Below, one piece after another: positions 2 through 20,773 of a DNA stretch of 64,000 nt. Made by a program: the position numbers and the translations under genes. Numbering within the stretch: position 1 is the first letter of the stretch; each line of letters begins with the position of its first letter. The stretch comes from a virus (lineage: Duplodnaviria > Heunggongvirae > Uroviricota > Caudoviricetes): positions 20,420 through 84,419 of the IMG/VR virus record IMGVR_UViG_2974574300_000001; one strand, written 5' to 3'. Under the pieces are notes generated by a model. It was not told the origin of the DNA. It saw only the letters and a list, made by a program, of their open reading frames with translations, and ran no database searches.

Positions 2-5694
<5,693 letters not shown>

Positions 5695-5696
5695 TA

Positions 5697-6863
5697 ATGG
5701 CAGTAGGTGAAATTCAAATTAGTGCCTTGCCTCAAGCAGCCTTACCAATTGACCTTAGTGATATCTTCCATCTTAAGCAGGGTATTGAGGATAAGAGATG
5801 TACTCTTGAGCAATTACTTGCTCCACACTCAAGCCTAAGAAATAACCCTCACGGTGTTACTAAAACACAAATTGGTTTAGATAATGTTATCAATGCTCTT
5901 CAGTTAGTTGCTGCAAATAACTTATCAGATGTTGCTAATGTCACTGAGGCAAGAGCAAATCTACAGATTATGTCTTCAGAAGAGGTTAATAGTCTTGTTC
6001 AACAGCATATTAATGATAAAAGTAACCCACACAATACAACTAAGGCACAGATTGGTTTGAGCAATGTCCAGAACTGGACAACATCTAATCTTTATAATGA
6101 AGATGCAGATAAGTACGCTACAGCAAGAGCAGTAAATAACTTGTACAAGGCTGTTCAGGCTTCTTATCCAGTAGGTACTATCCATCTCTCTATGAATCCT
6201 GCAAACCCTTCTACATATTTAATTTGTGGGGGTACTTGGGAGTTAGTTTCAAGAGGAAGAGCACTTGTAGGTTATGATAGTGATTCTAGGCCAGTTGGTA
6301 GTAACTTTGGCTCAAGTAGTGTTAGCTTATCTAGTAACAACCTACCATCACATAGCCATTCAATCTACCTAACTGGTGGTGGACACACTCATGGTGCTGC
6401 TATTACTATTGATGGCTTTGATTACGGCAATAAGAGCACAAACAGTTTCGATTATGGAACAAAGACCACTAATAGCACTGGTGCTCACACCCACTCAGTG
6501 AGTGGTTCAACAAATACCACAGGTAATCACACACATACTGTAGGTGGTCGTTATGGTGGTGACTCTATCGGTGGTAAACCGCGTGTTCAGGTATCTGGTA
6601 CAGAACAGGTTTCCAGTGTAGCTGGTGACCACTCACACACTATTAGCGGTTCAACAAATACCACAGGCAATCACCAACACACTGTTGCAATTGGTGCTCA
6701 CACGCATACTGTTGCAATTGGTGCTCATACCCATAAAGGCACAGTAACTTTGCAGTCATCTGAGCATACTCACTCAGGTACTACAGGTACTACAGGTGCT
6801 GGTCAAGCATTCAGCGTTGAACAACCATCCTTTGTGGTTTATGTATGGCAAAGAACCGCTTAA
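5697..6863 (+). CDS. tail fiber protein with C-terminal His-x-His repeat (metal-binding-type) tip
   Basis: 388 aa; C-terminus has many HxH motifs (SHSHS, GHTHG, AHTHSVSG, NHTHTV, DHSHT, NHQHTV, AHTHTV x2), as in T4 gp37/gp12-type fiber tips; shares a near-identical module with 8322..9257. Confidence 0.6.
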   Translation: MAVGEIQISALPQAALPIDLSDIFHLKQGIEDKRCTLEQLLAPHSSLRNNPHGVTKTQIGLDNVINALQLVAANNLSDVANVTEARANLQIMSSEEVNSLVQQHINDKSNPHNTTKAQIGLSNVQNWTTSNLYNEDADKYATARAVNNLYKAVQASYPVGTIHLSMNPANPSTYLICGGTWELVSRGRALVGYDSDSRPVGSNFGSSSVSLSSNNLPSHSHSIYLTGGGHTHGAAITIDGFDYGNKSTNSFDYGTKTTNSTGAHTHSVSGSTNTTGNHTHTVGGRYGGDSIGGKPRVQVSGTEQVSSVAGDHSHTISGSTNTTGNHQHTVAIGAHTHTVAIGAHTHKGTVTLQSSEHTHSGTTGTTGAGQAFSVEQPSFVVYVWQRTA

Positions 6864-6876
6864 AAATTCTTTTACA

Positions 6877-6898
6877 GGGGGCTGTACAGCCCTCTTTC
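6877..6898 (+). terminator. stem-loop plus T-rich tract between tail fiber genes
   Basis: gggct-gtac-agccc followed by tctttct; preceded by ctttacagggggct motif also present in the 51-54 kb cassettes. Confidence 0.3.
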
Positions 6899-6913
6899 TA
6901 GAGGACAAAAATA

Positions 6914-8275
6914 ATGGCAGATTACAAATTGAGTGAATTAAACTCAATCGATACAATCCGTTCAGACGACCTTCTTCATGTCAGGGTTAAAAAGAGACCT
7001 GAAATGCTGGGTGATGAAGACCGTCGAATGACCTATCAAGACTTCTTAGCATCTTTTAAGCTTGAAAGATTTGTTCAGATTGCTGGTAGTACTATGACTG
7101 GTGACTTAGGGATTGTTAAGTTACTTTATGGTGGTAAGGCAGTCTTTGACCCTACAGGCTCTTCCGAGATTACTATGGGGGATGTTTTAAAGACTTTTAA
7201 AATTAATGCAAATGGTCTTAAACTAACTATTGCAGATGCTTCAAGGTCTGCAACTGTTTATCATACTCTTAATAAGCCAAGTCCTAATGAGCTTGGGATG
7301 AGAACTAATGAAGAGAATGATGCAAGATATGCAAGGCTTGCTGTCACAAACACATTCTCTGGGACTCAGAACATTCAAGGTGATGTTAACTTACTTCGCC
7401 TTAGAAACCAAAATGCAAATAATGCACAATATATTGAAGGTGTAGACCTAGATGGCTCGGCTAGATGGTTGGTTGGTATTAGTAAAAATGGTTCTGATGC
7501 AGTGCAGTTGTACAATAATAAATATGACTCAGCTTTGACTATTGCAAGTAATATCTCTGTTAATAAGTCTTTAGCAATCACTGGTCAAGTCCAACCTTCG
7601 GATTTCTCTAACTTAGATGCTAGATACTTTACTCAGACAGTTGCTAATCAGAGATTTGCACAGTTAGCTGGGAATAACACTTTTACAGGTGCTAATACTT
7701 TCACTAACCTTGTTGTTAAGAAGAATGCTAATGCTATTACTTTGCAGAATACTGATGCAGGTACAGCACTTTATATTCTCGGTAAGAGGTCTGATGGAAC
7801 AAATAAATGGTATGTTGGTACAGATTCTGATGAGACACGTCTGAACATTTATAACTACCTTACAGGTTCACAGGTTTCACTAGGGACTACTATTGGTATT
7901 AATAAAACCGTGCAAATCAATGGTCAAGTTCAGCCATCTGATTGGACTAACATTGACTCTAGATATATTCCGGCAGCAACATTAAGTACAATTGCAAGAA
8001 CTAATGCACAAAATACTTTTAATGGTGCGCAAACAGTTGTTAGTGATGGCGAAGGTTTAGTTATTAAAAACTCTACTCAGAATAGGCCATTGTATATTCG
8101 TGGTAAGGACGCTGCCAATGTATCAAGATGGTGGTTAGGTGTTGGTGACCCAAATTCTACTGATGTAGCCTTAAACAACAGCTTCTCTGGCACTCAGTTA
8201 ATTTTAGGTAACTCATCTGCAAGTATCAATAAGACATTAACCCTAGCAGCAGATTCAACCTTCAGATTTCTCTAA
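6914..8275 (+). CDS. tail fiber protein with triplicated ~115 aa module
   Basis: 453 aa; internal repeats each ending GQVQPSD(F/W)(S/T)N(L/I)D(A/S)RY; third copy runs across the stop into the frame of the next ORF. Confidence 0.55.
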   Translation: MADYKLSELNSIDTIRSDDLLHVRVKKRPEMLGDEDRRMTYQDFLASFKLERFVQIAGSTMTGDLGIVKLLYGGKAVFDPTGSSEITMGDVLKTFKINANGLKLTIADASRSATVYHTLNKPSPNELGMRTNEENDARYARLAVTNTFSGTQNIQGDVNLLRLRNQNANNAQYIEGVDLDGSARWLVGISKNGSDAVQLYNNKYDSALTIASNISVNKSLAITGQVQPSDFSNLDARYFTQTVANQRFAQLAGNNTFTGANTFTNLVVKKNANAITLQNTDAGTALYILGKRSDGTNKWYVGTDSDETRLNIYNYLTGSQVSLGTTIGINKTVQINGQVQPSDWTNIDSRYIPAATLSTIARTNAQNTFNGAQTVVSDGEGLVIKNSTQNRPLYIRGKDAANVSRWWLGVGDPNSTDVALNNSFSGTQLILGNSSASINKTLTLAADSTFRFL

Positions 8276-8321
8276 CTTAGATGCTAGATATTACACGCAA
8301 TCTACCGCAAACTCTAGGTAT

Positions 8322-9257
8322 ATGCTTGCTTATTCTTCTGGCACTGGTACAGAGGTAGGTGATAGTGATGGCATTGCTTGGAATGCTAAAACTGGTCTGT
8401 ATAATGTTACAGGTTATAGTGGAGGCTCAACACAGCTTGTTTTCCAAATGTATCAGGGTGCAAGCTCTACTCCCTCTGCTCAATTAAAATTCAACTACAG
8501 GAATGGGGGTTTTTGGTATAGGTCATCAAGGGATGGTTTTGGTTTTGAAGAGGACTTCACACAAATTTATACAGAGAAGTATAAACCAACTCCTTCAGCT
8601 ATTGGTGCATACACTAAAGCAGAGACTGACCAGAAGATTGCAGAAGCGATTAGTGACTCTACAGACCTTAATAAAATCTATCCAGTAGGTATTGTAACGT
8701 GGTTTAACAGTAATGTTAACCCTAATACCGCACTTCCTGGATTAACTTGGACGTACCTGAACAATGGTGTAGGTAGGACAATCAGGGTTGCAGCAGCTAA
8801 TGGTTCAGATGTTGCTACAACTGGAGGCTCAGATTCTGTTACGTTAGCAGTTGGAAACTTACCTTCACACACTCATAGTTTCTCTGCGACAACCTCTAGC
8901 TTTGACTACGGTACTAAAACCACTAACACTACTGGTGCTCACACCCACTCAGTGAGTGGTTCTACTAACAACACTGGTGCTCATACACATACAGTTGGTG
9001 GTCGTTATGGTGGTGACTCTATCGGTGGTAAACATCGTGTTCAGGTCTCAGGGACTGAACAGGTATCTAGCTATGATGGTGCTCACTCTCACACTGTATC
9101 TGGTACTGCTGCCTCTAACGGAAACCATGCTCACACAGTTGGTATTGGTGCTCACAGTCATACAGTTAGTGGTAACACTGGTGGTACAGGTTCTGGTTCA
9201 GCATTTAGTGTAACTAACCAGTTCTATAAGCTGATGGCTTGGGTAAGAACTGCTTAA
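8322..9257 (+). CDS. tail fiber protein, HxH-tip paralog; frame open upstream from 8247 and possibly fused to 6914..8275
   Basis: 311 aa from first ATG; C-terminal FDYGTKTTNTTGAHTHSVSGSTNNTGAHTHTVGGRYGGDSIGGKHRVQVSGTEQVSS nearly identical to 5697..6863; upstream in-frame translation QQIQPSDFSNLDARYYTQSTANSRY continues the repeat of the preceding gene. Confidence 0.55.
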   Translation: MLAYSSGTGTEVGDSDGIAWNAKTGLYNVTGYSGGSTQLVFQMYQGASSTPSAQLKFNYRNGGFWYRSSRDGFGFEEDFTQIYTEKYKPTPSAIGAYTKAETDQKIAEAISDSTDLNKIYPVGIVTWFNSNVNPNTALPGLTWTYLNNGVGRTIRVAAANGSDVATTGGSDSVTLAVGNLPSHTHSFSATTSSFDYGTKTTNTTGAHTHSVSGSTNNTGAHTHTVGGRYGGDSIGGKHRVQVSGTEQVSSYDGAHSHTVSGTAASNGNHAHTVGIGAHSHTVSGNTGGTGSGSAFSVTNQFYKLMAWVRTA

Positions 9258-9336
9258 TCCCTTATTGACTGATTGTTAAGATGGTGTTAATATTCTTTAT
9301 GGGTATTCTCACCATCTTGGCTGATGAGGTGATTAA

Positions 9337-9531
9337 ATGCCTACAATCCTAGCAATTCTCCTAAAAAATCTAGGTAGCTTCTTCTGGAAACTCATTTTAT
9401 CCCTTCTAAGTGAATACATGATTGAGAAAGTGTTCTTTAAGCTTGCAAGATACCTTGCGGGTAAGACAGACACACCTATTGATGATGAGTTCGTAGATAA
9501 CTTAGAAAAAGCTTTTAAGGGGGAGAAATAA
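9337..9531 (+). CDS. small membrane protein
   Basis: 64 aa, hydrophobic N-terminal segment ILAILLKNLGSFFWKLILSLL. Confidence 0.35.
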   Translation: MPTILAILLKNLGSFFWKLILSLLSEYMIEKVFFKLARYLAGKTDTPIDDEFVDNLEKAFKGEK

Positions 9532-9897
9532 ATGAAGTGGCTAGAGGAAGCTTTTAAAAATAATATTGGTGCAATTGTTGTTGGTATTTTTAGTGTTATT
9601 GGGATGTATACCACGATGCAAGTTTCAAGTGGTAAGCAAGAAGTGTCTGTCACAACAAAGTTACAGCAGCTAGATAATTATTCCAGAAGTAACTATTCAG
9701 CTATTCGTGATTTACAGTCTGACATGAGACTGATTCAGCTAGGGATGGAGAACCAGAAAGTTCAGTTAGAGAATGTTAAGGGTGAAAACGCAAAACTTAC
9801 CAAAACCCTTGATAAATTCTCTGACAGTGTAAATAATCTGGCTCAATCAGTATCAGCCCTCCAAGCTATTACTGAGAAGAACACAAAAGAACACTGA
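9532..9897 (+). CDS. membrane-anchored coiled-coil protein
   Basis: 121 aa; N-terminal TM (IGAIVVGIFSVIGMY) then coiled-coil-like region. Confidence 0.35.
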   Translation: MKWLEEAFKNNIGAIVVGIFSVIGMYTTMQVSSGKQEVSVTTKLQQLDNYSRSNYSAIRDLQSDMRLIQLGMENQKVQLENVKGENAKLTKTLDKFSDSVNNLAQSVSALQAITEKNTKEH

Positions 9898-20350: not shown

Positions 20351-20773
20351 ATGCAGAAAATGTTTGTTCACCCAGACATAGCTGACTTTGTTAGAGCTTT
20401 GCAGAAGTTGGAAGAACTTGACATTGCTGCTCAACGGGAATATGCTCACCATCACAGGAGAATGGTTGATATACAACATGAAATAGAGTTGTCTGAAAAC
20501 TATGAAGATGACTTAAAATGCTCTGTATTTGAGCATATGAAAGATGTTGCTACAGCGAGACGTAAAGCTAAAGACACAGTTGCTTTACTAGATTCTCTTA
20601 AAAAGAGGTTGCAAAGTGGTACAGACCTGTGTAATCTAGCGTCACTGATTAACGATGTTGAAACTTCTTGGGATAGGCACTATTATCCACGTTCTGAAAA
20701 GACACTTGACTTTTCTTCATCCGAAAACTTAAAATGTTCTAGAAAGAAACTTAACCAACTGAGAGAGAAATAA
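20351..20773 (+). CDS. hypothetical protein
   Basis: 140 aa ORF opening the + strand replication block. Confidence 0.4.
   Translation: MQKMFVHPDIADFVRALQKLEELDIAAQREYAHHHRRMVDIQHEIELSENYEDDLKCSVFEHMKDVATARRKAKDTVALLDSLKKRLQSGTDLCNLASLINDVETSWDRHYYPRSEKTLDFSSSENLKCSRKKLNQLREK

Follow-up and report, generated by a model that had tools for sequence, protein, structure and literature searches.

Gene conversion between the tips of two gp37-type tail fibers in the clade of a Felix O1-like phage

The DNA stretch analyzed here (the window) is 64,000 nucleotides (nt) long, covers positions 20,420 to 84,419 of the IMG/VR virus record IMGVR_UViG_2974574300_000001, and carries two consecutive tail-fiber genes, for a short tail fiber (STF) and a long tail fiber (LTF), whose C-terminal tips contain a common block with histidine-x-histidine (HxH) boxes. 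Gene conversion between these two genes is well supported in the clade. On sequence grounds the window is assigned to a Felix O1-like myophage of the genus Felixounavirus, the 4.1 kb around the shared block having 98.5% nt identity to Salmonella phage PMBT20 and 91–97% to many Felix O1-like phages. The locus follows the order found in the PMBT20, VSe11, and Felix O1 records, namely a baseplate J-like protein, two small baseplate proteins, tail fiber, tail fiber, a small open reading frame (ORF), and a holin, and the STF orthologues of these three phages are annotated as tail fiber. In the window the LTF gene is split into an ORF at 6914–8275 (453 amino acids, aa) and a second frame whose first ATG lies at 8322 (311 aa). 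The two genes and the two copies of the block are as follows, in window coordinates:

5697..6863, plus strand: STF gene, 388 aa, taken from the ORF list; equivalent of Felix O1 gp76 and Bas63 gp26
6914..9257, plus strand: LTF gene, 781 aa once repaired; equivalent of Felix O1 gp77 and Bas63 gp27
6444..6641, plus strand: shared cassette, STF copy, aa 250–315, with an SFDYGTK box, two up-strand HxH boxes, the head, and the first down-strand HxH box
8898..9095, plus strand: shared cassette, LTF copy, aa 193–258 of the 311-aa ORF

The repeat finder returned one long two-copy family, 6444–6641 against 8898–9095, which is 198 nt long, gap-free, and 82% identical at the nt level with a spacing of 2454. 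Comparison of the two genes by blastn gave one strong high-scoring segment pair (HSP) of 270 nt (76.3%, E = 2e-54), the remaining HSPs being weak matches over short lengths, with E no better than about 0.002, and several of them cross-matches between HxH boxes. Exact identity extends furthest over 37 nt (6543–6579 = 8997–9033) and 32 nt (6477–6508 = 8931–8962), and these two runs contain both nucleotide strings from which the initial annotation of this DNA had proposed a near-identical HxH module shared by two tail-fiber genes. The shared block does exist and its flanks differ, as that annotation had stated: no alignment is possible on the left, and on the right identity falls to about 60% over the following 72 nt. 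Near-identity is a property of the protein, in which 59 of the 66 residues from SFDYGTK to HSHT are equal and 7 differ (4 differ within the 58-aa consensus first reported), but not of the DNA, which at 82% identity has, by NG86, a proportion of synonymous differences (pS) of 0.53, a synonymous divergence (dS) of 0.91, and a nonsynonymous divergence (dN) of 0.07. The dS is 1.65 in the left half of the block and 0.56 in the head half, so that the saturated synonymous divergence that had been named in advance as evidence against recent exchange is present in part, in the left half.

Recent duplication of the tip module in the window genome had been one of the two origins put forward, and a single clean gap-free pair with exact runs of 32–37 nt would be in accord with it. 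We rejected it as extremely improbable on the basis of divergence and distribution: a dS of about 0.9 does not fit a recent event, both genes have gp37-type tips genus-wide (40+ relatives) even where their two heads are unrelated, and the arrangement is already present in Felix O1.

Both proteins are tail fibers with HxH tips of the type known from T4 gp37, in support of the original proposal. The T4 gp37 tip structure 2XGF was matched by phmmer at E = 2.5e-25 over aa 146–359 of the STF and at E = 5.4e-14 by the repaired LTF, in which the phage Mu/P2-type fiber 8JU3 was matched further upstream; the STF also matched gp10 structures (phmmer, E about 6e-8). Against Pfam, the STF matched Gp10_C (E = 2.4e-17, 64.6 bits, cutoff 27), and the split LTF of the window matched gp37_trimer three times in the first ORF and gp37_C, Phage_fiber, and Gp10_C in the second, the last at 26.7 bits, slightly below the cutoff of 27. 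The collar thereby belongs with the homologous domains of T4 gp10, gp11, gp12, and gp37 (D10). The STF is laid out as an N-terminal baseplate-binding part, a collar from about aa 154, a needle, and a head at aa 283–307, and has nine HxH boxes, four on the outward and five on the returning strand. All seven T4 gp37 boxes pair with STF boxes in the phmmer alignment to 2XGF, and five pair with boxes of the LTF, which has three on each strand, six in all. The Felix O1 genome paper described the C-termini of gp76 and gp77 as both gp37-like (PMC3185647), and the same resemblance was noted for the fibers of VpaE1, whose gp75 was reported to be 54% identical to T4 gp37 (PMC4690856). In a 2025 cryo-electron microscopy (cryo-EM) study of Bas63, a Felixounavirus, the short fiber gp26 and the long fiber gp27 each have a collar, an HxH needle, and a head (PMC12609058). 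The corresponding parts of the cassette in the window are:

6486..6536, plus strand: STF HxH boxes, HTH at 6486–6494 and 6528–6536, with the down-strand HSH at 6630–6638
6543..6617, plus strand: STF head, GGRYGGDSIGGKPRVQVSGTEQVSS, predicted site of chain reversal and presumed receptor contact, aligned to T4 gp37 residues about 932–960 (D11 tip)
8940..8990, plus strand: LTF HxH boxes, HTH at 8940–8948 and 8982–8990, with the down-strand HSH at 9084–9092
8997..9071, plus strand: LTF head, GGRYGGDSIGGKHRVQVSGTEQVSS, a mosaic

The block thus takes in the final pair of outward HxH boxes, the head, and the box that opens the returning strand, and is therefore presumed to be the receptor-binding cassette, making up the distal third of the tip. 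Its description as a module of HxH repeats was correct insofar as the boxes are present, but the center is a non-repetitive putative head domain, placed by the T4 alignment at the predicted chain reversal. By homology, three chains would run outward along the needle, turn in the small head domain, and run back, and the needle would be held together by metal ions, with three HxH boxes contributing six histidines to the octahedral coordination of each ion. Such a trimeric fold and mode of metal binding are predicted for both fibers from this homology together with the cryo-EM description of Bas63. In the T4 gp37 needle seven iron ions are held by HxH histidines, with H929/H931 just ahead of the tip; tip residues 930–959 bind lipopolysaccharide (LPS) and OmpC, W936, G938, G942, and G943 are critical for function and intolerant of change, and K945 tunes receptor choice (PMC6957217). 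The up-strand boxes of the STF align to T4 boxes that include the Fe-binding pair H929/H931, and H929/H931, W936, G938, G942, and G943 of the T4 tip are matched by H, H, Y, G, G, and G. The most variable positions of the block among relatives, 46 (P/Q/H/L), 51 (S/Y/F/E), and 54 (E/N/A/Q/V), all lie in the head/tip region, position 46 being aligned opposite T4 K945.

Directly ahead of the cassette, the window STF has two copies of a 10-aa unit, FDYGxKxTxx (6420–6470, aa 242–259), of which other felixounaviruses have three or four (e.g., L026 and L027; positions compared in L020–L031). Since the copy number differs among felixounaviruses, the length of the outward needle strand changes by whole units.

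Both fiber tips were extracted from 43 related loci for comparison, and in four of 18 relatives the STF and LTF copies are perfectly identical over long tracts, of 189 nt in BPS17L1, 141 nt in Seyj1-1, 115 nt in PMBT20, and 113 nt in L005 (UAB_Phi87-like). Each of these tracts has an allele of its own, with synonymous variants and private replacements, for example YVGD/VYGT in BPS17L1 and QASGTAQ in L005. All four end on the right at about block nt 198, just past the returning HxH box, where homology between STF and LTF collapses, and their left ends fall at block nt 9, 57, 83, and 87, adjoining the SFDYGTK box and the two outward HxH boxes. In a Sawyer-type permutation test of concordant site runs (94 variable sites), the four genomes gave pairwise p ≤ 0.0002 and global p of 0.0002–0.015. 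The initial annotation had viewed the block as a substrate for homologous recombination between the fibers, with breakpoints to be sought at the module edges in related phages, and the tracts and their ends bear this out. Its suggestion of gene conversion stands for the clade, on the strength of the four tract genomes, but not as a recent event in the window, where nt identity is 82%, dS about 0.9, and p = 0.02.

The distribution of alleles along the block points in the same direction. Mean distance in the head segment is 0.137 between paralogs versus 0.111 within a paralog, and the nearest neighbor lies in the other gene in 16/37 cases, compared with 8/37 at block nt 60–99 and 0/37 in the outer flanks (block nt 0–60 and 198–270), where the between-paralog distance is 0.19–0.40. 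An explanation by selection only, in which a shared receptor and fold keep the tips alike with no DNA exchange between the genes, would account for the contrast of dS 0.91 with dN 0.07 in the window, for the left-half dS of 1.65, and for the weak permutation result of p = 0.02. It can yield neither 113–189 nt of perfect identity with genome-specific synonymous variants in four independent genomes nor an allele pool confined to the head while the flanks remain paralog-specific, and we regard it as very unlikely.

Individual alleles can be followed between the two genes. Felix O1 has a 51-nt identical STF/LTF run, and its LTF head is one substitution from STF alleles. The window STF head is the same as both PMBT20 copies over block nt 130–198, with one difference over nt 99–198, which argues that the PMBT20 LTF was overwritten by an STF allele that is still unconverted in the window. 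The window LTF is itself composite. Its segment 8997–9062 equals the STF allele of Felix O1, VSe11, Mushroom, ST11, GEC_B1, and FG1m (no differences from Felix O1-type STF alleles over block nt 99–130 and 130–165, one over nt 126–170), and its segment 9063–9095 equals the LTF allele of GEC_vB_B1 (no differences over block nt 165–198). This patch, being the STF allele of other phages and not that of the window's own STF, favors exchange between co-infecting phage genomes with within-genome identity as a by-product, as do the passage of cassettes across family borders to T4-like phages and the T4 head carried by L008 and L012 (described below). However, four genomes have both copies identical and otherwise private alleles (YVGD/VYGT, QASGTAQ), for which copying within a genome or lineage is the simplest account. 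We consider exchange of this kind an unlikely explanation; the inter-phage and intragenomic routes both proceed by ectopic homologous recombination, and neither excludes the other.

The explanation that we favor, and judge to be probable, is that both baseplate fibers are gp37-type-tipped and that their cassette copies are kept alike by selection together with recurrent conversion. Two forces would be at work: purifying selection on the protein, and gene conversion, in which short tracts are repeatedly exchanged by ectopic recombination between the two genes, which lie 2.45 kb from each other. Homology for exchange would come from the conserved SFDYGTK and GxHxH boxes that surround the head, and the same boxes would permit whole-cassette swaps with other gp37-type fibers, those of T4-like phages included. 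In the window the last exchange would be old, the copies having since drifted to 82% nt identity, and PMBT20, its closest relative, would have undergone a fresh STF-to-LTF conversion.

Several points weigh against this explanation. The window pair reached only p = 0.02 pairwise in the permutation test and was globally not significant, its longest identical run being 37 nt and its dS 0.91; given this weak conversion signal, the similarity in the window could be held mainly by selection. A repeat can give rise to consensus or assembly artifacts, and the tracts of identity in the published genomes might in principle be of this kind. An AlphaFold2 model of the STF monomer, built from a 43-sequence alignment, had a mean predicted local distance difference test score (pLDDT) of 61.5, falling below 50 in the head segment, and a predicted template modeling score of 0.28, and a Foldseek search of this model against the PDB gave no match at E ≤ 0.001, with weak gp10 collar matches only (prob 0.77–0.90). 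Finally, no experiment ties either Felix O1-type fiber to a defined receptor, and BASEL calls the receptor mechanism unresolved. The architecture, with gp37-type tips and HxH metal boxes, and the swapping of cassettes were already known, and the homogenization of STF and LTF is a modest new detail; literature searches on how Felixounavirus fibers recombine, covering gene conversion and His boxes as well, brought up no paper in which STF/LTF exchange is described.

The head is hypervariable across the genus, with many unrelated types, and the heads of the two fibers differ in members infecting E. coli. The same head type is present on both fibers in 18 genomes of the Felix O1/Salmonella branch, including the window and Felix O1, and on the STF only in one branch member, L022 (BPS17W1-like). 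A tblastn search with the 43-aa head matched 84 phage records, 78 of which are Salmonella phages, and head types correlate with host. We infer that the STF and LTF of the Salmonella branch bind the same LPS-core receptor.

Heads of the Felix O1 type also occur outside the genus. GRNsp7 (L094), a T4-like Salmonella phage of the Tequatrovirus group, has at 2300–2794 a T4 gp37 frame carrying a Felix O1-type head between T4-like flanks; over 120 nt this head cassette has 90% nt identity to an STF allele of Felixounavirus, and a gp38-type gene comes after the gp37. Escherichia phage PTE-Eco15 (L095) likewise has a T4-type gp37 with a Felix O1-type head, and P2-like Salmonella phages have a 62% identical version of the head. 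Two E. coli felixounaviruses from IMG/VR, L008 and L012, bear at the LTF C-terminus (about 7900–8070) the head HYIEAWNGTG.GG.KMSSYA..YR.GGSNTNAAGNHSHTFSF, which is that of T4 gp37 almost unchanged and therefore indicates cassette transfer between T4-like phages and Felixounavirus. The LTF of these two phages possibly has a T4-like OmpC/LPS specificity.

The LTF gene of the window has two further features that bear on its reading frame:

7562..8299, plus strand: LTF shaft repeats, three copies with a spacing of about 339 nt, INK...QPSDFSNLDARY, identified by the repeat finder, frame analysis, and three Pfam gp37_trimer matches
8246..8251, plus strand: frameshift site, a 2-nt deletion (GGG to G) between 8248 and 8249

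At the frameshift site the window has CTAGCAGCAGATT where relatives have CTAGCAGGGCAGATT, two G's having been lost. This deletion at 8248/8249 is the only true indel relative to PMBT20 across 8 kb and puts a stop at 8273–8275, such that the ORF 6914–8275 terminates in ...INKTLTLAADSTFRFL and the adjacent frame carries on as QIQPSDFSNLDARYYTQ..., and reinsertion of GG restores a clean 781-aa LTF ORF with a single terminal stop. The third shaft repeat copy spans the frameshift (the two earlier copies are at 7592 and 7931), and 6914–8275 and 8322–9257 are therefore one gene; the latter, initially taken for a separate tail-fiber gene, is the C-terminal fragment of the frameshifted 781-aa LTF gene 6914–9257. 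A single LTF coding sequence (CDS) of about 2346 nt is present in PMBT20, VSe11, Felix O1, and almost every other relative; among relatives LTF length ranges from 777 to 849 aa. We considered programmed frameshifting at 8249 and rejected it: a slippery run is absent, relatives read through with GG, and in them ATG 8322 codes for an internal Met.

Of 50,697 phage records, only that of Salmonella phage ST11 shares the 2-nt deletion with the window; ST11 differs from the window by 1–2.6% in the fiber region and has an extra 175-nt deletion in the shaft repeat region, its LTF being annotated as three CDSs. An exact-pattern scan of IMG/VR found the frameshift allele in no contig. The LTF is intact in 30 of the 31 tabulated relatives and not intact in L013 and ST11. 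In L013 (IMGVR_UViG_2706796256) the LTF is not one long ORF, only a 259-aa C-terminal ORF having been found, and given this genome LTF disruption may be recurrent in the genus. The frameshift would be either an inherited mutation of a small lineage with a putatively defective LTF or else a shared sequencing error.

It is possible, and we suggest it only tentatively, that in Felix O1-type Salmonella phages the STF and LTF heads form one conversion-maintained allele pool, in which an adaptive change would be copied across and result in coordinated retargeting, and that the LTF can be lost because the two tips are redundant. Cited for such loss are the window and ST11, which carry a frameshifted LTF yet belong to propagated phage lineages.

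No gp38-type chaperone gene was found after the window fiber genes, the downstream ORFs encoding a 64-aa protein and then the holin, beyond which thymidylate synthase and dihydrofolate reductase are encoded on the opposite strand. A scan of 5300–9700 for promoters and terminators gave nothing exceeding shuffled expectation. A complete Felix O1-type fiber locus, with 91% identity to the window, is also present in L085 (GU169904.1, ‘Staphylococcus phage SA1’, flagged UNVERIFIED_ORG), a record that is probably a mixed or mislabeled assembly.

Among the Salmonella phages used in diagnosis and biocontrol, Felix O1 is a classic. If a single exchangeable head cassette with defined boxes (6444–6641 and 8898–9095) is indeed present on both fiber sets, it would provide a handle for engineering or predicting host range, and would help to explain the strongly mosaic tail-fiber alleles of the genus. 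Resistance at one LPS-core receptor may then also defeat both fibers together.

The window fibers share with the T4 gp37 tip (PDB 2XGF; D10 collar, D11 needle and tip) a homology that extends through collar, needle, and tip. They differ from it in the number of HxH boxes (seven in T4, nine in the STF, and six in the LTF), in having a head of another type, GGRYGGDSIGGKxRVQVSGTEQVSS, in the absence of a gp38-type gene downstream, and in the receptor, which is OmpC or E. coli B LPS for T4 and presumed to be Salmonella LPS core for the window. Felix O1 gp76/gp77 and Bas63 gp26/gp27 are direct orthologues that agree with the window fibers in gene order and in length (388 aa, and 781 aa when repaired) and likewise have gp37-like HxH tips. 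In Bas63, as in other members infecting E. coli, the two heads are unlike, whereas the Felix O1/Salmonella branch has the same head type on both fibers, and the window differs from its Felixounavirus relatives in its frameshifted LTF.

Tail-fiber mosaicism with conserved boxes as crossover points was reportedly described by Haggard-Ljungquist in 1992, by Sandmeier in 1994, and by Tetart, Desplats and Krisch in 1998. The felixounavirus fibers resemble the His-box adhesin swapping of T-even phages in having a variable receptor-binding segment between conserved GxHxH and related boxes, at which the tracts end, and in cassettes that are common to the window clade and T4-like gp37 genes. They differ in that the partners include the two fiber genes of one genome, and the outcome is homogenization of the tips (concerted evolution), not only the diversification between phages seen in T-even swapping.

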